32,000 nt of DNA, taken from positions 2,190,001-2,222,000 of the forward strand of contig NC_010814.1 of assembly GCF_000020385.1 (NCBI RefSeq), read 5' to 3'. The notes under the pieces are model-generated. The model saw only the letters and a list, made by a program, of their open reading frames with translations, had not been told where the DNA came from and made no database searches. The translations under genes and the position numbers were made by a program. This DNA comes from Trichlorobacter lovleyi SZ. GTDB taxonomy: Bacteria > Desulfobacterota > Desulfuromonadia > Geobacterales > Pseudopelobacteraceae. Shown in pieces: positions 1-19,271 of this stretch (positions are counted from its first letter, which is position 1; each line of letters starts with the position of its first letter).

Positions 1-294
1 TGCCCTGCCGGCTGCCCCCATAAACGGAAAATACTCCCGCCAGCCGGCATAACAGTTGCCCCGGAAGGTCCAGATCATCCGGGTGATGACGCTGACAGCA
101 AAGGCATAGGCAAAGACAAAGTGGATGAAACGGATCCAGCCCATCAGATACGCCTCTGGAGAGCTGCCGATAAAGACCGGATTGCCGATCAGGACACCGG
201 TCCCCGCCAGCACCACAATCGAGAGCACATTGACCCAGTGGCACCAGCGGACCGGCAGTTCCCAGATATACTGTTTAAACTTCTTCTCACTCAT
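1..294 (-). CDS. hyaC: Ni/Fe-hydrogenase b-type cytochrome subunit, N-terminal ~98 codons (3' end beyond window start)
   Basis: ATG at 294-292 (minus), 15 nt after the large-subunit stop. My translation is MSEKKFKQYIWELPVRWCHWVNVLSIVVLAGTG..., the typical R-x-x-H-W start and TM helices of the hydrogenase cytochrome b family. Gene order is small-large-cyt b. Confidence 0.8.
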   Translation of the reverse strand, partial: MSEKKFKQYIWELPVRWCHWVNVLSIVVLAGTGVLIGNPVFIGSSPEAYLMGWIRFIHFVFAYAFAVSVITRMIWTFRGNCYAGWREYFPFMGAAGRA

Positions 295-308
295 GGCAGC
301 CCCCTTTC

Positions 309-2009
309 CTAGGAGACCTTGACCCGCACCAGCTCATTGCCGGTGGCATCAGTAACATGCACGGCACAAGCCAGGCAGGGGTCAAAGGAGTGAATGGTGC
401 GCAGGATCTCCAGCGGCTGGTCAGGCTTAGCAACCGGTGTCCCCACCAGGGCGGCTTCATAAGGGCCGCGCTGCCCCTTGGCATCACGGGGTGAGGCGTT
501 CCAGGTGGAAGGCACCACAGCCTGATAGTTGTAGATTTTTTGATCCTTGATCTTGATCCAGTGTCCCAGGGCACCACGGGGGGCCTCATGCCAACCGTAG
601 CCGGACGCCTCGGCAGGCCAGGTCTTGGGATCCCACATCTCATTGGCATGGATACGATAGTCCCCCTTGCCGATATTGGCAATCAGGGCATCCAGCCAGA
701 CCGGTGTCTGACGGGCGATCAGCAGGGCATCAATCCCGCGGGCTGCGGTGCGTCCCAGGGTAGAGAACAGTGCTGCAGGTCCGACCCCAAGCTTGCCCAG
801 CACCATATCAACCGCTGCCTTGCTTTCTTTGTGGCCAGCCACATAGGCAACCAGGATCCGGGCCAGGGGGCCAACCTCCATGGCTGCTTCATCATAACGG
901 GGTGCCTTGACCCAGGAGTACTTTTTATCCGTATCCAGGAATTCATAGGGTGGCTTGGGGCCGGTGTACTTGGCCTCTGACTCACCTTTCCAGGGATGCA
1001 ATCCTTTGCCTTTTGCATCCTGATACTCATACCAGGAGTGATCAACGTACTCGGTCACCTTCTGTTGATCCAGGGGCAGCACCTTGGAAATATCCTTGTT
1101 CATGATTGCCCCAGGCGGGAACCAGAGGTTACCATTGATCGGGTCCGGGAACTCGCCATAGGAAAGAAAATTGCCCACCCCGCCACCAATGGCGGCCCAA
1201 TCCTTATAGAACGAGGCGATGGCCAGCAGGTCCGGGATATACACCTTTTCAACAAAATCCTGGGCCTTGGCCAAAAGGCGCTTGATGGTGATCAACCTGT
1301 CGGCATTCAGGGCGTTCTGGGAATCAGGATCCACCGGGATCGACATCCCACCCACCAGGAAGGTCTGGGGATGGGGATTCTTGCTACCCAGGATGGCGTG
1401 AATCTTGATGACCTCTTTCTGCCATTCCAGAGCTTCAAGATAGTGGGCCGTTGCCATCAGGTTTGCCTCAGGCGGCAGTTTGTAGGCAGGATGCCCCCAG
1501 TAGGCATTGGCAAATGGGCCAAGCCGACCGGTTCCCACAAAGGCATTCAGCTTTTCCTGTACTGCCTTGAAGTGAGTGGCCGAATTGTTGGGCCAGTCAG
1601 AGATGGAGGCAGCCAGACTGGCGGTCTTGACCGGATCAGCCTTGAGGGCCGAGGTGATATCCACCCAGTCCAGTGCATGCAGATGGTAGAAATGGATCAC
1701 ATGATCCTGCACCCCCTGGATGCCGATGATGATGTTACGAATCAGCTGGGCATTGGGAGGAATCTTGATCTTGAGAGCATCCTCAACCGCCCGGATCGAG
1801 GCGATGGAGTGAACCGTGGTGCAAACCCCGCAGAAACGCTGGGTCCAGTACCAGGCATCACGGGGATCACGGCCTTTCAGGATTTTCTCGATGCCGCGAA
1901 ACATGGTACTGGAGCTCCAGGCATCCTTGATCTTGCCATCCTCAATCTCGGCCTCGATGCGCAGATGCCCTTCTATTCTGGTAATTGGATCAACGACTAT
2001 CTTGGCCAT
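309..2009 (-). CDS. hyaB: [NiFe] hydrogenase large subunit (Cys-type, not Sec)
   Basis: 566 aa. N-terminal RIEGH and RxCGVC motifs, C-terminal DPCLACAVH nickel-binding motif. Sits directly after the small subunit. Confidence 0.95.
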   Translation of the reverse strand: MAKIVVDPITRIEGHLRIEAEIEDGKIKDAWSSSTMFRGIEKILKGRDPRDAWYWTQRFCGVCTTVHSIASIRAVEDALKIKIPPNAQLIRNIIIGIQGVQDHVIHFYHLHALDWVDITSALKADPVKTASLAASISDWPNNSATHFKAVQEKLNAFVGTGRLGPFANAYWGHPAYKLPPEANLMATAHYLEALEWQKEVIKIHAILGSKNPHPQTFLVGGMSIPVDPDSQNALNADRLITIKRLLAKAQDFVEKVYIPDLLAIASFYKDWAAIGGGVGNFLSYGEFPDPINGNLWFPPGAIMNKDISKVLPLDQQKVTEYVDHSWYEYQDAKGKGLHPWKGESEAKYTGPKPPYEFLDTDKKYSWVKAPRYDEAAMEVGPLARILVAYVAGHKESKAAVDMVLGKLGVGPAALFSTLGRTAARGIDALLIARQTPVWLDALIANIGKGDYRIHANEMWDPKTWPAEASGYGWHEAPRGALGHWIKIKDQKIYNYQAVVPSTWNASPRDAKGQRGPYEAALVGTPVAKPDQPLEILRTIHSFDPCLACAVHVTDATGNELVRVKVS

Positions 2010-2012
2010 AGT

Positions 2013-3134
2013 CTATTCCTCCCCGTCTTTTGTGTTCTCGTCAGCCGTATCTTTATCCTTGCGCAGGGCATTCATGGCACCATGGATAGCAAAGGCACCA
2101 CCCACACCGGCAGTAAAGGCAAGCCCGATCTTGTCGGCACTCTGCTCAATACCAAAGCCAGGCACGTTGGGCAGACGGCGATAGAGTGGCGAAGTATCCC
2201 AGAACTGGGGTTCGGAACAGCCGACACAGCCATGACCGGCAGCAACCGGCCAGCTGATTCTCTCGTTAAAACGCTGGGTGGGACAGTTATGGAAGGTTGC
2301 CGGACCCTTACAGCCCATCTTGTAGAGGCAGTGCCCCTTGCGGTGGGCATCATCCCCCCAATGCTCAACATACTGACCGGCATCAAAGTGGGGACGACGT
2401 TCACAGTTGTCATGAATCCGCTTGCCGTAGGCAAACAGGGGACGGCCATGGCTGTCAAGACTGGGAAGTTTACCAAAGGTAAGGAAGTGAACCACTACAG
2501 CGGTCAGGTTATCGGCATTGCAGGGGCAGCCGGGCAGGTTGATCACCGTAGCACCGGGCACCGCCTCTTTGACCCCAACTGCGCCGGTGGGATTGGGAGC
2601 AGCAGCGGGAATACCGCCGAAACTGGCACAGGTGCCCACAGCAATGGTGGCTGCTGCAGATCCACAGACCTGTTTGGCCCGGGCCAGATGGGACTTGCCG
2701 CCAACACAGCCATAGGCTCCTCCTTCCTTCATCGGGATGGAACCCTCAACCACGCAGAGGTATTTGCCCTGGAACTCTTTGATGGTCTTTTCGAGGTTGG
2801 CCTCAGCCTGATGACCGGCAGCAGCCATGATGGTTTCATGGTAATCAACCGAGAGGATATCCAGTACCAGCTCTCCCACGGTGGGGTTGGCTGAACGTAA
2901 CAGAGCCTCCGTGTCGCCGCAGCAATCCTGAAACTCCAGCCAGACCAGCGGAGGACGCTGCACCTTGTCCAGGGCTTGAGCCACCTTGGGTGCCATGGTG
3001 GCAGGTAACGCCATGGCAGCGGTGACAGTAGAACAGAATTTCAGGAAATCACGCCGCGAGACTCCCCGTTCTTCAAGCATCCTGGCAACCGAGAAACCTT
3101 CCTGTTTCTTTCCAGCACATTCATCTCTGTCCAT
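2013..3134 (-). CDS. hyaA: [NiFe] hydrogenase small subunit, Tat-exported, with C-terminal membrane anchor
   Basis: Twin-arginine signal SRRDFLKF, Fe-S cysteine clusters and a C-terminal hydrophobic helix. I chose the start at MDRDE (ATG 3134) because GAGGAGG precedes it. The track ORF extends to 3203. Confidence 0.92.
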   Translation of the reverse strand: MDRDECAGKKQEGFSVARMLEERGVSRRDFLKFCSTVTAAMALPATMAPKVAQALDKVQRPPLVWLEFQDCCGDTEALLRSANPTVGELVLDILSVDYHETIMAAAGHQAEANLEKTIKEFQGKYLCVVEGSIPMKEGGAYGCVGGKSHLARAKQVCGSAAATIAVGTCASFGGIPAAAPNPTGAVGVKEAVPGATVINLPGCPCNADNLTAVVVHFLTFGKLPSLDSHGRPLFAYGKRIHDNCERRPHFDAGQYVEHWGDDAHRKGHCLYKMGCKGPATFHNCPTQRFNERISWPVAAGHGCVGCSEPQFWDTSPLYRRLPNVPGFGIEQSADKIGLAFTAGVGGAFAIHGAMNALRKDKDTADENTKDGEE

Positions 3135-3377
3135 AGGCACCTCCTCTGGCGGTAGCTGCACAAAAAACCCCTGTTCTTCTATACCCCTCACTTGCCGCGT
3201 CAACGGTTAATACAAACGATGTTATTATAACGCTGAAATTGTTTTTAGCAAGCATCCAGGGATTATTTAGTCCAAACGCAGCAAACCACAACAAACGCGC
3301 CATAGCATTCAAATATACAAATATCTATTTTTCTGCATAAAATTGACCTTTACTAAAGGCCGTTGTATACAGAGCCC

Positions 3378-3710: not shown

Positions 3711-3801
3711 ATGCAGTACGCAGCATAGCCGCAGAAATGGTATTTCCCTGATTATTCCTCGCTGTTTCAGGCAGCAGGACACTACCGAAAGGAGTTATTC
3801 C

Positions 3802-4968
3802 ATGAGTATCCGCACCAGACTTGCAGCCAGTTTTGTCACACTCTTTGCTGTTGCCCTGCTGGCCGGTTGTGAAACCGGACCAGAGGTCAAAAGTGAAGCA
3901 CCAACACCGCAGACAGTGGCAACTGCCGCGCCTAAGGAGGGAGCAAAGAAGACAGGCCCTGTGCTGCCTAAAGGCGTCACTGTAATCTCTACGGATGAGC
4001 TTAAGGCTTTGATTGCAAAAGGTCCTGAAGCCGGAAACTACCTGCTTTTTGACAGCCGCCCCGCCTCACGTTTCCATGCTGCAACCATCCCGACCTCGAT
4101 AATGTTGCCAGACACGGAAATGGTAAAGCTGGACAAAGAAGGCAAGGCCCATCCCCTGCTTGGCCAGGACAAGAATAAACTTCACATCTTCTGGTGCGGA
4201 GGCCCTACCTGACCGTTCTCAATCAAGGCTGCCGGTCTGGCAGTCAAGTATGGCTACACCAACGTAAAGGTATTCTCCGGTGGCGACCCTGCTTGGGCAA
4301 AAGCAGAGCAACCTTTTATTTCATCACCCAAGCATGTCAAAGAAGCAAATATTCTGCTGCTTGACTTGCGTTCAGCTGACAAATTTGCTGCCGGTCATAT
4401 TCCTCGCGCTCTGAACTTGCCAGCAGCCAATCTGGACAAATACCAAGAAAACAACTGGCCCTCCTTTAAAGGTGCCGCAATTGTCTTCTACAGCGACAAT
4501 CAGGCCGATATTGATAAGGCTCTCGAGTTGATGCGCGATTACGGCATGTCCAAGGCGACCTACTTCCCCGGTGGCCTGGCAAACTGGCAAAAACTAGGAA
4601 ACCCGGTTGAGACAGGTCCCAAGCCTGCCCCAGCCAACCTTGTCTTTGTACGTGTATTGGGACCACAAGACATAACCATACCTGATTTCATTAAAGCACT
4701 GGACAACCCAAATGTTGTCATTCTGGATGTCCGCAACCCAACTGAAAGGGCAACCGGCCAGTTCAAAGGCTCCATACACATCCCGTCTGAGGAAATCGGA
4801 ACACGTTACAGCGAAATCCCCAAAGACAAGCTTGTAATTGTCCACTGTTCCACTGGCATTCGTGCCGGGATTGCCTATGAGACGCTGAAGGCCAAAGGCT
4901 TTACAAATCTTAAGGCGTTGAATGCAAACGTTAAATTTGAAAACGGAAAATACAAAATCACCGAATAA
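3802..4968 (+). CDS. Triple-rhodanese-domain lipoprotein read through one in-frame UGA (4210-4212), a putative selenocysteine at residue 137
   Basis: AAGGAG RBS and lipobox LLAGC. ORFs 3802-4212 and 4366-4968 share a frame and no other stop lies between them. The TGA splits a rhodanese domain (HIFWCGGPT-[TGA]-PFSIKAAGLAVKYGYTNVKVFSGGDPAW). Domain 2 lacks an active Cys (FYSDNQAD). Domain 3 has the classical HCSTGIRAG loop. Confidence 0.7.
4227..4245 (+). promoter_or_regulatory. SECIS-like hairpin: GGCUGCC / GGUCU loop / GGCAGUC
   Basis: 7-bp stem (one G-U pair) starting 14 nt after the UGA. The 5-nt GGUCU loop starts 21 nt after the UGA, a position and loop type like bacterial SelB-binding elements. 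Confidence 0.55.
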
Positions 4969-4994: not shown

Positions 4995-5026
4995 AAAGGG
5001 ACGGAGCAATCCGTCCCTTTTGTTTC
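4995..5026 (+). terminator. Rho-independent terminator after the rhodanese gene
   Basis: GGGACGG-agcaat-CCGTCCC followed by TTTTGTTT. Confidence 0.8.
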
Positions 5027-6331: not shown

Positions 6332-7060
6332 TTGCAACATGTCGTAATCCATACAACTCTGGAGTGCCCGACCTGCGCAACAACACGCCTGTACCGTTTG
6401 GCAGACGGACGCTTCAAATGTTCACTTTGCAGAAAGGTATTCAGCGCTGGCGACAATCGTCATAGCAGACTTTCACCGTTGATACGTGAAGAGCTGGCAA
6501 AGGCATTCTGGAAGATGGATGGAACTGCAGATACAGCAGAAGCACTCAAACTGAATATCAAAACAGTTCAAAAATATTTCAGTTTGCTGCGGGATAATCT
6601 GGCAAAACATGCTCGCTTGAATCTGATTCAACAACTGGGGAGCGACACACTGCCAACAAACTGGTTCGAATCGTTTCCCCGACGCAGCAGCTGCGGGCAC
6701 CATGCTCAACCGCTTGCGGCAGTAGCCAAAGCAGGTGACAACCTCAACTTCCTGCTGGCAAGCCCGGATGCAGCACAACCGGTATTTCCCGAATCAGCGC
6801 TGCTGGGCTGGCTGTATGCACAGGATGACGAGAGCAAGCAACGCATCAATCTGGACCGGATACATTGCCAATCACGGGACAGCGACAGCATTACCCTTGC
6901 AATACCATTCTGGAGATTTGTCAAACAAGGACTGATCCGTTACCAGGGTGGCTTCAGGCATCATTTTTATCAGTATTTGCGAGAAATGGAGTTCCGTTAC
7001 AACGACCGTCAGAAACAGCGTGGACCAGATATCTGCCTGCATTTTCTAGCTTCCGAGTAA
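6332..7060 (+). CDS. IS1595/ISXO2-like transposase-derived protein (zinc ribbon plus truncated C-terminal transposase domain)
   Basis: N-terminal CPTC...CSLC zinc ribbon. C-terminal FWRFVKQGL..YQG..HHFYQYLREMEFRYNDR resembles the conserved IS1595 C-terminus. At 242 aa it is short, and I saw no flanking terminal inverted repeats. The start (TTG 6332) is uncertain. Confidence 0.55.
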   Translation: MQHVVIHTTLECPTCATTRLYRLADGRFKCSLCRKVFSAGDNRHSRLSPLIREELAKAFWKMDGTADTAEALKLNIKTVQKYFSLLRDNLAKHARLNLIQQLGSDTLPTNWFESFPRRSSCGHHAQPLAAVAKAGDNLNFLLASPDAAQPVFPESALLGWLYAQDDESKQRINLDRIHCQSRDSDSITLAIPFWRFVKQGLIRYQGGFRHHFYQYLREMEFRYNDRQKQRGPDICLHFLASE

Positions 7061-7087: not shown

Positions 7088-8935
7088 ATGCGCCGAACAC
7101 CAGTAGCACTCGTTGTACTCGTTTTTTCAATGTTGTTCATGCTGCCAGGCATACTCCACGCTACAGTGGACAAAATGGCCTACGACCCGGAAAACTGCCT
7201 TGGTTGCCACAGCAGCAAAATCAGCCTTGACAACTTTGCCGCCTCCCCCCATGGCAAAAACGGCTGTACCAGTTGTCACCTCCAGAGTGCCGACCTGAAG
7301 AAGCACATGACCGGCAATACCAAACTGGACAAGGTCAACTGTTCCCGTTGCCATGGCAATGAGACCAAGGAGTTTGAAAAGAGCGTTCATGCCAAGAGCG
7401 GACTGACCTGCGTATCCTGTCACTCGGACATCCATGCCTTCAGCTCCAAAAAAAGCGACAAGAAAGCTGCAACACTGGCCTGTATCAAGTGCCACGACAA
7501 GCAGAAGGTACACCTGAACTCAGTTCATGGTGTATCTCTGATGAAAGGCAATCCCGATGCACCCGGCTGTGCGGATTGTCATGGGCTGCACGGCATTAAG
7601 AAAGTACAACCGGCCAGCACCATTGAAGGTCGAATGTTCCATGTTGATGCCTGCATCAAGTGCCACAGTGACGAAAAAATGATGCACCGCAATCATGTCA
7701 ACGGCCATGCTGTTGAAACCTACCTGGATAGCTACCACGGCAAAGGCTATCGCCTGGGCATGCTGCAGAAGGCTGCCGGCTGTTCTGACTGCCACACTGC
7801 ACATAATGTACTTAAAAAAGACAACCCGGCCTCCTCAGTACATCCCAATAATGCCGCTAAGTCCTGCGCTCAGTGCCATACCAAGGCTACTGCACTGTTT
7901 GCCAAATTCTACTCACACGGTAGTCACCACGACCGTGAAAACTACCCCCTGATGTACTGGACCTTCAAGGCCATGGTAGGCCTGCTGGTAGGTACCTTCG
8001 CTGTATTCTGGGTTCACACTCTGCTCTGGATGTTCCGAGGTTTTGTTGAAAACCGTGAAAAACAGAAGGCCTTGATTGAAGGCCATGTACACCATGTTGA
8101 TGAACCGCACAAACTGTACTACCGTTTCAAAAAACGCCATATCTTCCTGCACTTTACGGTAATTGTCAGCTTCCTGGGTCTCTCCCTGACCGGACTGCCG
8201 CTTAAGTTCAGTGACCAGGCCTGGGCCCAGACCATGATGTCCTTCTTTGGCGGCGTTGAATATGCCGGCCTGATTCACCGTGGCTGCGCTGTACTGACCT
8301 TCTATTATTTCATGGGCGCACTCTGGATGAGTATTGACTTCCTGCTGCTGCGTAAGGATGTAAAAGGCAATGTCCTGCAGCGGATGTTCGGACCAGACTC
8401 CCTGATGCCGAACTTCCGTGACATCAAGGATGTGATCGGCATGGTCAAATGGTTCCTGTTTAAAGGGCCCAAACCGACCTTTGAACGCTGGACTTACTGG
8501 GAAAAATTCGACTTCATCGCCGTCTTCTGGGGTATGTTTGCCATCGGCGGTTCAGGTCTGATGCTCTGGTTCCCCGAATTCTTCGGTCAGTTCCTGCCCG
8601 GCTGGGCATTTAACCTGGCAACTATCGTCCACTCTGACGAGGCACTGCTGGCAACCGGCTTCATCTTCACGGTTCACTTCTTCAACACCCATGGCCGTCC
8701 TGAGAAGTTCCCGATGGACTTCGTTATCTTCAACGGTCAGATGAACAAGGAAGAGTTCATTGAAGAGCGTGGTGACCAGTGGAAGCGTTACGAAGAGCAG
8801 GGAATACTGGAGTACTTTGAAGTTGAGAAGCCCAGTGGTGTAGTCTACGACTTTATCTTCAAGACCTTCGGCTTTATTGCCGTATTCACCGGCCTTGCCC
8901 TTGTGGTGGCCATGTTGTGGGCCTTCCTGGCCTGA
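7088..8935 (+). CDS. cbcL: CbcL-like inner-membrane cytochrome: nine-haem c-type periplasmic domain fused to a multi-TM b-type cytochrome (HydC/FdnI-like) domain
   Basis: Signal peptide and nine CXXCH motifs (CLGCH, CTSCH, CSRCH, CVSCH, CIKCH, CADCH, CIKCH, CSDCH, CAQCH). These are followed by about 6 hydrophobic helices with conserved His (RHIFLHF, HSDEA, HFFNTH). GGAGAG RBS. Confidence 0.8.
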   Translation: MRRTPVALVVLVFSMLFMLPGILHATVDKMAYDPENCLGCHSSKISLDNFAASPHGKNGCTSCHLQSADLKKHMTGNTKLDKVNCSRCHGNETKEFEKSVHAKSGLTCVSCHSDIHAFSSKKSDKKAATLACIKCHDKQKVHLNSVHGVSLMKGNPDAPGCADCHGLHGIKKVQPASTIEGRMFHVDACIKCHSDEKMMHRNHVNGHAVETYLDSYHGKGYRLGMLQKAAGCSDCHTAHNVLKKDNPASSVHPNNAAKSCAQCHTKATALFAKFYSHGSHHDRENYPLMYWTFKAMVGLLVGTFAVFWVHTLLWMFRGFVENREKQKALIEGHVHHVDEPHKLYYRFKKRHIFLHFTVIVSFLGLSLTGLPLKFSDQAWAQTMMSFFGGVEYAGLIHRGCAVLTFYYFMGALWMSIDFLLLRKDVKGNVLQRMFGPDSLMPNFRDIKDVIGMVKWFLFKGPKPTFERWTYWEKFDFIAVFWGMFAIGGSGLMLWFPEFFGQFLPGWAFNLATIVHSDEALLATGFIFTVHFFNTHGRPEKFPMDFVIFNGQMNKEEFIEERGDQWKRYEEQGILEYFEVEKPSGVVYDFIFKTFGFIAVFTGLALVVAMLWAFLA

Positions 8936-9253: not shown

Positions 9254-9289
9254 ATGTAAGATTTGTTCCCGGAGGGAACCGTCACTACC

Positions 9290-10963
9290 ATGGCTGACAA
9301 CGACAATTGCGAACAACTGAAATATTTCAGTCATATTATGGACTCCGTGGCAGATGGTGTCTTCACCGTAGACCGTGATATGCATGTCATTGCCTTTAAC
9401 CGCGCTGCAGAGCTGATGACCGGCATTAAGAGAGCAGATGCGGTTGGGCGCCCCTGTCACGAGATTTTCCGCACCTCGGTCTGTGACAATGGTTGTCCGG
9501 TACGGGAAGCAATGAAGAAGGGCAAACCGGTTACCAACCGTGAAGTAACCATTAAAAATGCAGAAGATAAGTTGATTCCGGTTTCAGTCAGCGCCTCCAT
9601 TCTCTATGACGATGAAGGCAACCCGATTGGCGGGGTTGAGACTCTGCGCAGCATGAAGCGTATCTACGCGATTATGGACAGCGTTGCCGATGGCCTCTTT
9701 ACGGTTGACGAAGGGATGCACATCACTCACTTTAACAAGGCTGCCGAAGAAATTACCGGGGTTTCCGCTCAGGAAGCGATCGGCAGGCCCTGCTATGAAA
9801 TCTTTAAATCCGAAGCCTGCACCGGTGCCTGCCCGATGGTTGAAGCCATTGCCACCGGCCAATCCATCCAACGGGAAGTGGAAATCAGTGATCGCAAAGG
9901 GCGTAAGAAGCTGATCTCAGTCAGCGCATCTACCCTCTATGATGCAGCCGGCAATGTCATGGGCGGAGTGGAAACCGTCCGCGACCTGACACCGATTACT
10001 GCAATTAAAGAAGAAATTCGTGAAAAATACTCGTTCCGCAGCCTGGTGAGCCGTAACCCTGCCATGCGGCGCCTGTTTGACGTCATGGAAGATATCGCTG
10101 CCAGCAATGCAACCGTCTTCCTGAACGGTGAAAGCGGCACCGGGAAAGAGCTATTTGCCAGGGCTATCCACGATTTAAGCCCCCGCCGCGAAGGTCCGAT
10201 GGTAATCGTCAACTGTGGCGCCTTGCCGGAAACCCTGCTTGAGTCAGAGATCTTCGGTGTCCGCAAAGGAGCCTTTACCGGTGCAACAGAAAACCGCCCC
10301 GGGCGGCTTGAACTGTGTAACGGCGGCACATTCTTCCTGGATGAAATCGGTGACCTGCCATTGCCGCTGCAGGTAAAACTGCTGCGTGTCCTGGAAAACC
10401 ATGAGTTCCAGCCACTTGGCGCCCGTTCTCCCATCAAGGCCGATGTCCGCTTCATCACCGCAACCCACCGTAATCTTGAAGAGATGGTGGCGGAAGGCAC
10501 CTTCCGTCAGGATCTCTACTTCAGAATCAATATTGTTACCCTCAACATCCCTCCCCTGCGTGACCGTCGCGAGGATATCCCCCTGCTTGTTGATATGGCT
10601 CTGCAACGTTTCAACCTCACCTACAATAAAAAAGTCCGCTCTGTTTCACCTGAAGTCTTGAAGCTGTTGCTTACCCACTCCTTTCCCGGCAACGTCAGAG
10701 AACTCTTGAATCTGATCGAACAGTCAGTCATACTCTGCCGCGGAACAGAGATCACTCTGGATCACCTGCCAACTAACTTTCTGGGGCAATCCCACGAGCA
10801 GGCGCAGAACACGCGTCGTTCCGGCAAGATTCCGACCGCCGCAGATCTGAATGCCCTGTTAAGCCGCTATAGCGGCAATCGGGCCGAAGTTGCACGGGAG
10901 CTGAATATCGACCGTACAACCCTTTGGCGTTGGATGAAAAGGCTTGGTGTGAAGGAGTTTTAA
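9290..10963 (+). CDS. Sigma-54-dependent transcriptional activator: PAS-PAS, AAA+ and Fis-type HTH
   Basis: Walker A GESGTGKE, GAFTGA loop and C-terminal HTH (NRAEVARELNIDRTTLWRWMKR). Two PAS domains each carry C-x9-C-x3-CP. Start taken at ATG 9290 (MADNDN) after GGAGGGA. Confidence 0.9.
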   Translation: MADNDNCEQLKYFSHIMDSVADGVFTVDRDMHVIAFNRAAELMTGIKRADAVGRPCHEIFRTSVCDNGCPVREAMKKGKPVTNREVTIKNAEDKLIPVSVSASILYDDEGNPIGGVETLRSMKRIYAIMDSVADGLFTVDEGMHITHFNKAAEEITGVSAQEAIGRPCYEIFKSEACTGACPMVEAIATGQSIQREVEISDRKGRKKLISVSASTLYDAAGNVMGGVETVRDLTPITAIKEEIREKYSFRSLVSRNPAMRRLFDVMEDIAASNATVFLNGESGTGKELFARAIHDLSPRREGPMVIVNCGALPETLLESEIFGVRKGAFTGATENRPGRLELCNGGTFFLDEIGDLPLPLQVKLLRVLENHEFQPLGARSPIKADVRFITATHRNLEEMVAEGTFRQDLYFRINIVTLNIPPLRDRREDIPLLVDMALQRFNLTYNKKVRSVSPEVLKLLLTHSFPGNVRELLNLIEQSVILCRGTEITLDHLPTNFLGQSHEQAQNTRRSGKIPTAADLNALLSRYSGNRAEVARELNIDRTTLWRWMKRLGVKEF

Positions 10964-18026: not shown

Positions 18027-19271
18027 TTAGGTGTAAACTATCTTCATTGCGTTACGGCGGCGTGCAAGCTTGTGACGCGCCGGTTGTTTTACAACAAGGC
18101 CAGCATCAGCATGTAACTGAAAAAAATTGTGCAGCCAGTTAAATCGCTTAAACAGTGCATGGCGAAGACGCACACTATTGGCATGGCAGAAATGCCCCCA
18201 ATAGCTGCCCAGCAGCGCTTGCAATTTGCTGAAAGACTCTGTGCTGACCATCTGGGCAGCTTGGCCATACTGTTGCCACCAACCTGAAAGCTTCTTGCAG
18301 CAGTGCTTTACTACCCTGGGGCGCACAAGGCGATGGCCGCAGTAGACCCGATACCCCAGAAAATCCACCCCATGATGTAACGGCGCCAGCACCACGGCAT
18401 CTTTCAGGCGCAGCTGCAGTCTGGTTTCAAGAAAAGCAGCTATCTCTGCCTGCCATGTACGCAACTGCTCTTTACTGTCTGCCAACAGCACAAAATCATC
18501 CACATAGCGCAGATAATTCCGCACCTTTAGTTGATGCTTGATGAATTGATCCAGCTCATTCAGATAGACATTGGCAAAAAACTGGCTGGTAAGATTACCC
18601 ACCGGCAAACCGCACTGGGGTCGGGCGTTACGAAGCCGTTTGTGGGGCGGCACAGAAGATGGCGCAGCCCCAGGCCGTTCAATTTCTCGGCTTTTACGGG
18701 CAAGTAACTTATGACACAGGCTGCGTAACGCCAGTCTCTGGCTATCTGCCAGCTTTCCTTTCTGCAAGGCCAGATCAAGACGGCGGCACAGCAGGGCATA
18801 TAAGGTAGGGCGATGGATGCTGTTAAAATAGTTATGGATATCCAGTTGCAGATACCAGCCCTGTCCGTTTCTGCGGCGGATCATCTGCTGCAGACGATCA
18901 ACCGCTGCGTGGCTACCCTTAGCAGTGCGGTTAGCATAGCTATCGTATACAAATACCGGTTCATACAGGCGCTGAAGCCGATCCACCAGCAGGTGGTGGA
19001 CAATCCGGTCGGCAAACGCCGGCGCATGTATCTCACGGGTCTTGGGGTGAGTTACGGTAAAACAAACAGTGGGGGCTGGCTGCCAGCAGCCAGCACGCAG
19101 GCTGCTGTACAACTGGTGCAGGTTATCCAGCCAACGTGCCTCAAACAAAAGTTGATTGGCGCTGGGCTTTTTGCCGCGCCTGGCCTGTAGCCAGGCAGCA
19201 TGGCAGGCAGAAAACCGGACAGACACCGGCAGATTGGGAGAATAGACTGCTTTCACCGTGCTTAGCTCCAT
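18027..19271 (-). CDS. DGR reverse transcriptase
   Basis: RT motifs include YVDD (RYVDDFVLL) and the DGR-typical LPVGNLTSQ ([ILV]GxxxSQ). No maturase or endonuclease domain. Flanked by TR and a VR-bearing gene. Confidence 0.93.
   Translation of the reverse strand: MELSTVKAVYSPNLPVSVRFSACHAAWLQARRGKKPSANQLLFEARWLDNLHQLYSSLRAGCWQPAPTVCFTVTHPKTREIHAPAFADRIVHHLLVDRLQRLYEPVFVYDSYANRTAKGSHAAVDRLQQMIRRRNGQGWYLQLDIHNYFNSIHRPTLYALLCRRLDLALQKGKLADSQRLALRSLCHKLLARKSREIERPGAAPSSVPPHKRLRNARPQCGLPVGNLTSQFFANVYLNELDQFIKHQLKVRNYLRYVDDFVLLADSKEQLRTWQAEIAAFLETRLQLRLKDAVVLAPLHHGVDFLGYRVYCGHRLVRPRVVKHCCKKLSGWWQQYGQAAQMVSTESFSKLQALLGSYWGHFCHANSVRLRHALFKRFNWLHNFFQLHADAGLVVKQPARHKLARRRNAMKIVYT

Follow-up and report, generated by a model that had tools for sequence, protein, structure and literature searches.

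We analysed a 32,000-nt stretch of the Trichlorobacter lovleyi SZ genome (contig NC_010814.1, positions 2,190,001 to 2,222,000 of the forward strand; hereafter the window, in whose own numbering all positions are given) with a focus on a rhodanese gene at 3802–4968 (+) that is interrupted by an in-frame TGA. Translation of this region yields one frame of 389 codons for 388 residues, which closes with a TAA at 4966–4968 and has a TGA at 4210–4212 as its sole internal stop. The two entries in a mechanical list of open reading frames (ORFs), 3802–4212 and 4366–4968, lie in the same frame, and our translation agrees with the original prediction that only this TGA parts them and that the protein context is HIFWCGGPT-*-PFSIKAAGLAVKYGYTNVKVFSGGDPAWAKAEQPF. 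A ribosome-binding site (AGGAG, 3790–3794, +) precedes the ATG by 7 nt, and the first 69 nt (3802–3870, +) encode a putative lipoprotein signal peptide with the lipobox L-L-A-G-C23 (Cys codon 3868–3870); both were read directly in the sequence. By eye, MSIRTRLAASFVTLFAVALLAG-C23 satisfies the lipobox pattern [LVI][ASTVI][GAS]C, G22 and C23 are nearly invariant in close homologues, and N-terminal fragments of the family carry the JGI annotation 'uncharacterized lipoprotein'. The product is thus predicted to be an exported three-domain rhodanese lipoprotein, its export being read from the lipobox. Reading of the UGA at 4210–4212 (+) as the codon for selenocysteine (Sec) 137 is strongly supported by its homologues and by a hairpin just downstream (4227–4245, +), and makes 3802–4968 a complete selenoprotein coding sequence.

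The Pfam family Rhodanese (PF00581) matched the protein in three stretches with 134.7 bits (gathering cutoff 22.2), and a fold search returned only generic multi-domain rhodaneses with low TM-scores. Domain 1 (3964–4326, approximately residues 55–175) contains the active-site loop C132-G-G-P-T-U137-P-F-S140, domain 2 (4327–4647, approximately residues 176–282) has Ser231 where the catalytic Cys would be, and domain 3 (4648–4965, approximately residues 283–388) has the canonical loop C349-S-T-G-I-R-A with its Cys codon at 4846–4848. All three are encoded on the plus strand. Domain 3 gave the best Pfam stretch (295–373), and its C349, G352, and R354 are invariant. Pfam, a structure model, and the lipobox are hence in accord with the predicted 388-residue lipoprotein of three rhodanese domains. 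Because Ser231 replaces the catalytic Cys, a substitution seen both in the alignment to domain 3 and in the model, domain 2 is presumably inactive.

Sec137 is the partner of the canonical catalytic Cys132 (codon 4195–4197, +) and not its substitute, as it lies five residues further on. In HMMER alignments of domain 1 with solved rhodaneses, the catalytic Cys of TSTD1 (6bev) and that of 6mxv align with C132, and a two-residue gap is needed before the next helix. We also modelled P0001, a Cys homologue with 81% identity, with AlphaFold2 (pLDDT 89.1). In this model, strand 125–129 leads directly into C130, the equivalent of C132 in the window protein, and strand 342–346 of domain 3 leads in the same way into the canonical C347; the Sec column is the penultimate of seven loop residues ahead of helix 137–147. 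In both domains the catalytic Cys (C132 and C349, respectively) is therefore the first loop residue after the central beta-strand. Profile–profile alignment of domain 1 with domain 3 (probability 98.9%) pairs C132 with C349 and Sec137 with G352 of C-S-T-G-I-R-A, and has a two-residue insertion in the domain 1 loop. C132 and the Sec/Cys column are both invariant among 65 full-length homologues, in which S140 is at least 90% conserved. The HMMER alignments, the model, and the profile–profile alignment together refute the earlier assignment of the UGA to the catalytic position of a C-x4-[KR]-[AS] loop; the canonical catalytic Cys is C132. Of the proposed order of Sec-active, inactive, and Cys-active domains, the second and third elements stand, with domain 2 devoid of the Cys and domain 3 carrying a canonical Cys loop, but a 'Sec-active' domain 1 in which Sec replaces the catalytic Cys is wrong because the canonical Cys is C132 and Sec137 is at position +5. 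The architecture is Cys-x4-Sec, then inactive, then Cys-x4-Arg.

A search of a 5.8-billion-protein collection recovered 296 relatives. The full-length homologues of 383–388 residues are 66–81% identical to the window protein, and every full-length homologue, from an 81% identical Trichlorobacter lovleyi protein down to approximately 30% identity, has a Cys at the TGA column within a conserved C-G-G-x-T-C-x-x-S motif. Many other matches of approximately 250 residues start two or three residues past this column, and the DNA fetched for them has an in-frame TGA exactly there in each case. We combined the fetched loci with scans of species-representative genomes and of metagenomes into a set of 101 loci with the motif. 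Its second position is TGA in 73 loci and TGC or TGT in the remaining 28, as had been anticipated for a column occupied by either Sec or Cys; the first position is a TGC or TGT Cys codon in 101 of 101 and is recoded in none. The TGA form is present in a cultured isolate, Trichlorobacter thiogenes ATCC BAA-34 (NZ_FUWR01), and Sec and Cys paralogues occur together in T. thiogenes (L009/L013) and in metagenome-assembled genomes (MAGs; L010/L014 and L026/L012). The exact 136-residue N-terminal fragment of the window protein recurs in the public collection, in 72 blocks that include one from MAG GCA_050171295.1, a genome with the identical gene, and a domain 1 query recovered 54 clusters of fragments of 130–137 residues that stop at the TGA and are labelled 'hypothetical protein' or 'uncharacterized lipoprotein'. 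Given these 72 blocks and 54 clusters, the TGA can be ascribed neither to faulty assembly nor to a mutation private to one genome. Gene callers cut the locus into pieces of 136 and of 200 or 248 residues, so that public annotation is split as the original prediction had expected of standard pipelines.

In a neighbour-joining (NJ) tree of 87 different sequences, 61 with Sec and 26 with Cys, Fitch parsimony requires at least ten switches between Sec and Cys, with Cys clades nested in Sec clades, and reconstructs the midpoint root as Sec. Sec is thus probably the ancestral state of this rhodanese family, as judged from the tree. Four distant homologues of approximately 457–462 residues (P0062, P0089, P0093, P0118) have an N-terminal CxxCH haem motif (VCTNCH, ICATCH, ICTTCH) that is followed by an additional beta-rich domain and then by the rhodanese domains, and would be cytochrome c–rhodanese fusions.

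The hairpin downstream of the UGA begins 14 nt past the TGA and reads GGCUGCC-GGUCU-GGCAGUC, with a stem of 4227–4233 and 4239–4245 and the apical loop GGUCU at 4234–4238; it encodes K-A-A-G-L-A-V and is the minimum free energy (MFE) structure of the region. Position, stem, and cap are those given in the original prediction, in which the element was called similar to a Sec insertion sequence (SECIS). We scripted the published criteria for bacterial SECIS elements (bSECIS), namely an apical loop of 3–9 nt with a G within its first two positions (pattern N-G-[G/U]-N-N), a stem of 4–16 bp, a UGA-to-loop distance of 16–37 nt, and an energy of −7.5 kcal/mol or lower. With its 7-bp stem, 5-nt loop GGUCU, spacing of 21 nt, and energy of −10.7 kcal/mol, the window element agrees with all four. 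No in-frame TGA of the window other than that at 4210–4212 combines long open flanks in both directions with a suitably spaced hairpin of bSECIS type. When in-frame TGA codons were screened for open flanks, no further credible selenoprotein gene emerged; site 27804 lies in a non-coding frame, and its hairpin is a weaker one due to chance.

A predicted likeness to the apex of the Escherichia coli fdhF SECIS was borne out by the fdhF sequence, an element present at 100% identity, and annotated as fdhF, in more than 5,400 E. coli genomes. In both cases the hairpin lies directly downstream of the UGA within the coding sequence, both apices read GGUCUG, and both loops start with G-G-U. The UGA-to-loop distance is 18 nt in fdhF as compared to 21 nt in the window, and the stem sequences are unrelated. 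The stem of the fdhF SECIS has a bulged U, which the perfect 7-bp helix of the window lacks. A search against 4227 Rfam families returned nothing at gathering thresholds for the whole window, nor at E-values up to 10 for 4150–4320.

The hairpin goes with the TGA across the family. Each of the 60 distinct TGA forms carries a hairpin of 4–8 contiguous bp whose loop lies 21–22 nt from the UGA. The loop has 3–5 nt with G within the first two positions and is mostly GGUCU, otherwise GGUCA, GGUCG, GGC, GUC, AGUAA, AGGAA, or AGA. The stem sequences vary (among them GCUGCC/GGCAGC, GCCGCC/GGCGGU, AUCGCC/GGCGAU, UCUGCCC/GGGCAGA, and CUCCGCCA/UGGCGGAG). If stems must be strictly contiguous, −7.5 kcal/mol is reached by 34 of 60 TGA forms versus 2 of 26 Cys forms. 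In an ungapped 54-nt alignment of TGA forms with 57 distinct rows (A4), 83.8% of the cells pair, as compared to 21–44% in slid registers, and the covariation score is 0.326 versus 0.133 in shuffles, none of 500 of which reached 0.326. Pair 21:33 (4230 and 4242 in the window), which links two Ala codons through their wobble positions, is C-G in 36, U-A in 20, U-G in one, and unpaired in none of the TGA forms; pair 24:30, at Ala and Leu wobble positions, is C-G in 54, A-U in two, and U-G in one. The same pairs are broken in most Cys forms (15 of 26 for 21:33 and 18 of 26 for 24:30), and locus L020 retains the peptide AAGLA with codons that break the stem. The expectation that the hairpin would be conserved only where the column is TGA was thereby upheld, as was the recoding of the UGA as Sec with which it had been combined. 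Locus L019 (3397–3450; Trichlorobacter sp. MAG BF1_19) has TGT at the Sec column and an intact hairpin GCUGCC-GGUCU-GGCAGC, which suggests a recent change from Sec to Cys with a relic SECIS.

A covariance model built from A4 had one strong match in the window, at 4210–4263 with 60.6 bits (the window sequence being part of the training set); Cys forms scored 13–41 bits and L019 53.8 bits. The SECIS also appears to constrain the protein sequence after the active-site loop: in columns 19–33 of alignments A4 and A5, TGA forms nearly always have A-G-L-A (or A-R-R-A) in the helix, and Cys forms vary in the same stretch (G-E-L-A, A-A-M-A, A-N-M-A).

We assign a probability of roughly 85% to the whole reading, in which 3802–4968 is one intact selenoprotein gene, the hairpin its SECIS, and Cys132 and Sec137 a pair. 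Several observations weigh against it. There was no match to selA, selB, selC, selD, tRNA-Sec, any tRNA, or Rfam within the 32-kb window. Of the 60 TGA forms, 26 have only 4–5 bp and lie above the −7.5 kcal/mol limit when stems are strictly contiguous. The hairpin alone is no more stable than shuffled sequence (z = −0.22 for a 61-nt segment), and the MFE of the whole segment hardly separates TGA forms from their synonymous recodings (−11.5 versus −9.3 kcal/mol). Since stability alone is at the level of shuffled sequence, the significance of the hairpin comes from the comparative data only; discrimination was achieved by position-specific criteria and by covariation. The gene neighbourhood is unconserved beyond close relatives and hence supports no pathway assignment, and the chemistry suggested for Cys132 and Sec137 is read only from their position in the loop.

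An inactivated gene would be the simplest alternative to decoding of the UGA as Sec: a TGC- or TGT-to-TGA nonsense mutation in a Cys-containing rhodanese gene, for which the existence of Cys forms that differ by one base and the two fragments seen by gene callers could be cited. The same TGA, however, occupies 73 of the 101 loci across deep branches of the family, with Sec at the midpoint root, and the structured element with its compensatory synonymous changes goes with TGA and only TGA. Furthermore, the 251 codons downstream of the TGA are open with a ratio of nonsynonymous to synonymous substitution rates (dN/dS) of 0.055–0.083 at dS of 1.7–2.6 between the window and other TGA forms, and this sequence is under strong purifying selection. 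A pseudogene is therefore highly improbable. The UGA might instead mainly terminate translation to leave a lipoprotein fragment of 136 residues and possibly a separately initiated C-terminal protein, Sec insertion being a minor event. Sec insertion in bacteria does compete with termination by RF2, and there are candidate downstream starts, such as TTG at 4366 and the start of a 248-residue call in L008. Termination would, however, split domain 1 between the active-site loop and the next helix, so that, going by the model, neither part should be foldable as a domain; the residues from the TGA to the first downstream start are conserved as protein; and the starts chosen by gene callers differ by locus, with no ribosome-binding site or conserved start after the TGA. 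We thus regard predominant termination as improbable.

As improbable as a pseudogene is read-through of the UGA with a standard amino acid, be it by near-cognate Trp or Cys decoding or by local reassignment, with the hairpin as a SelB-independent stimulator. Such stimulation by hairpins located after a stop codon does occur in other systems, but in this column TGA alternates strictly with Cys codons, a pattern diagnostic of Sec/Cys exchange. In distance, loop size, and G-[G/U] loop sequence, moreover, the hairpin conforms to the SelB-dependent bSECIS model, and it has the GGUCUG apex in common with fdhF. TGA is also a normal stop elsewhere in the window, where it ends 5 of 15 other checked genes and is in-frame in none of the 15, and Geobacter species are documented Sec users with about eight selenoproteins each.

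Among known families, a Sec-containing rhodanese has several counterparts. A 2026 review of prokaryotic selenoproteins distinguishes five rhodanese-type forms. Form 1 (PF00581 with UxxS and a single Sec; representative WP_010941598.1) goes back to a bSECISearch prediction in Geobacter by Zhang & Gladyshev in 2005 and is catalogued in PMC9312934 and PMC13188914. Forms 2 and 4 have the motif UxxG, form 3 has CxU (NF041203, 'LYCAU'), and form 5 is TsoB (NF045694) with UxxxxU and two Sec. The accession range of WP_010941598.1 is presumably that of Geobacter sulfurreducens, which falls into the same family as the closest relatives of the window (Trichlorobacter/Geobacter). The window protein has in common with form 1 the Pfam Rhodanese family, a single Sec, and the motif U-x-x-S (U137-P-F-S140), although the catalogue gives UxxS without mention of the Cys that is conserved five residues upstream in the family of the window protein. 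Because of the U-P-F-S motif and the Geobacteraceae relatives, the window protein most probably belongs to form 1, a match by motif and taxon and not by sequence alignment to WP_010941598.1. In forms 2, 3, and 4, Sec likewise lies in the active-site loop of a rhodanese fold. UxxG would place the Sec of forms 2 and 4 where a C-x-x-G-x-R loop has its canonical catalytic Cys, a residue that the window protein keeps, and the form 3 model NF041203 matches only domain 3 of the window protein, with 58.7 bits versus a cutoff of 115.

TsoB was the best NCBIfam match (E-value 3e-20; residues 58–181 versus profile positions 42–165). It is a curated selenoprotein model with a rhodanese domain (example sequence WP_332113227.1), and its UxxxxU spacing equals C132-x4-U137. 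TsoB has a DsbD-like membrane domain, whereas the window protein consists of Rhodanese domains only and has one Sec, the first position being Cys in 101 of 101 loci. Membership in TsoB was rejected on the grounds of the single Sec, the missing DsbD-like part, and a score of 71.7 bits that is far below the cutoff of 805. Judging by the spacing and by the region that was matched, both U residues of TsoB would nonetheless occupy the same columns as C132 and U137, and by analogy the shared spacing suggests that both loop positions are chalcogen-active. We found no literature on TsoB beyond the 2026 review. The solved structure closest to domain 1 by sequence is BH2092 (PDB 3o3w, 3nhv; E-value 1e-4), a single-domain protein whose two-Cys loop C-W-G-P-A-C aligns with C-G-G-P-T-U and has Cys instead of Sec. 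No paper on BH2092 was found and it is apparently uncharacterised.

Another rhodanese-like lipoprotein of the Geobacteraceae is ExtH (GSU2940) of G. sulfurreducens, a 49-kDa protein of the extHIJKL cluster whose gene adjoins those of the porin ExtI and of the selenoenzyme MccSep (extKL), a polysulfide reductase (PMC5877670, PMC13510729). The size of 49 kDa fits homologues of approximately 455 residues that are 62–64% identical to the window protein, which is shorter (388 residues) and has no N-terminal beta-domain. Orthology to ExtH was considered and is unsupported: the window gene and the one 455-residue homologue that was examined both lie outside an ext-type cluster, and no porin, MccSep-type, or split cytochrome gene stands beside the window gene.

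Under the favoured reading, the UGA at 4210–4212 would be decoded as Sec, with the hairpin at 4227–4245 acting as the SelB-bound SECIS of a SelB-dependent insertion. Sec137 occupies the end of an active-site loop that exceeds the usual length by two residues, immediately ahead of a helix N-terminus. Cys132 would hold a persulfide, as in other rhodaneses, and the selenolate of Sec137 could be the attacking or resolving nucleophile on it, either accepting the sulfane sulfur or releasing sulfide upon formation of a Cys-S-Se-Sec selenenylsulfide. Domain 1 might thereby provide a fast, redox-active site for handling sulfane sulfur (or selenium) in the periplasm, next to a putatively non-catalytic module (domain 2) and an ordinary Cys-x4-Arg sulfurtransferase site (domain 3). 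A link of periplasmic sulfur or selenium handling to hydrogen oxidation is conceivable, and the Cys paralogues in the same genomes would probably be selenium-independent backups. A bolder proposal, which we consider rather unlikely, is that Cys-x4-Sec in a lengthened loop represents a distinct catalytic type of the rhodanese fold in which the selenolate resolves the persulfide via a selenenylsulfide or Se-S-S, and that the protein is not a simple transferase but a periplasmic sulfane-sulfur/polysulfide reductase or relay that feeds hydrogen-dependent sulfur (or selenium) respiration in Geobacteraceae. Pointers to such a role are the divergent HydABC-type NiFe hydrogenase and the relationship to ExtH, a protein of the MccSep cluster.

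The hydrogenase in question is encoded upstream of the rhodanese gene by a divergent operon for a HydABC-type periplasmic NiFe enzyme (1–3203, −; large subunit 309–2009, small subunit 2013–3203), an arrangement that is syntenic in 12–13 close relatives, nearly all of them TGA forms. In locus L005, genes for a cytochrome b and a HycI-type maturation protease lie further along the operon. Thirty nucleotides past the stop codon of the rhodanese gene is an intrinsic-terminator-like hairpin (4998–5025, +; GGGACGGA-GCAA-TCCGTCCC, then TTTTGTTT) that was read directly and has a perfect, GC-rich stem of 8 bp; it is missing from a consensus terminator scan, whose output comprised minus-strand sites only. 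Downstream follow small ORFs, a multihaem c-type cytochrome of 615 residues (7088–8935, +), a PAS/sigma-54 activator (9263–10963, +), a TPR protein, and polyphosphate kinase. The neighbour analysis mostly returned antisense ORF artefacts, and only the PAS/sigma-54 activator and the NiFe hydrogenase recur. A homologous sigma-54 activator is found near the rhodanese gene in 24 fetched loci, which makes it a candidate regulator of this gene. Between the rhodanese gene and the multihaem cytochrome, a 242-residue ORF (6332–7060, +) has weak matches to the zinc ribbon and DDE parts of IS1595-type transposases, both below Pfam cutoffs, and is possibly a decayed insertion sequence. Elsewhere in the window, a 414-residue ORF (18027–19271, −) with a reverse-transcriptase domain (RVT_1, E-value 5e-17) is probably a group II intron or retron-type element.

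The selenoprotein family appears to have been catalogued already, following its prediction in 2005, and the window gene is a further member that gene callers have split. Dozens of its relatives are likewise split or labelled 'hypothetical' or 'uncharacterized lipoprotein', as evident from the 54 clusters of N-terminal fragments and many truncated C-terminal ones, and the 73 TGA and 28 Cys loci together with the SECIS covariance model would permit their correct annotation. The family occurs in bacteria with a recently described selenium-dependent polysulfide reductase. With Sec as the partner of a Cys (C-x4-U) and at least ten switches between Sec and Cys, it offers a natural system for what selenium adds to persulfide chemistry.

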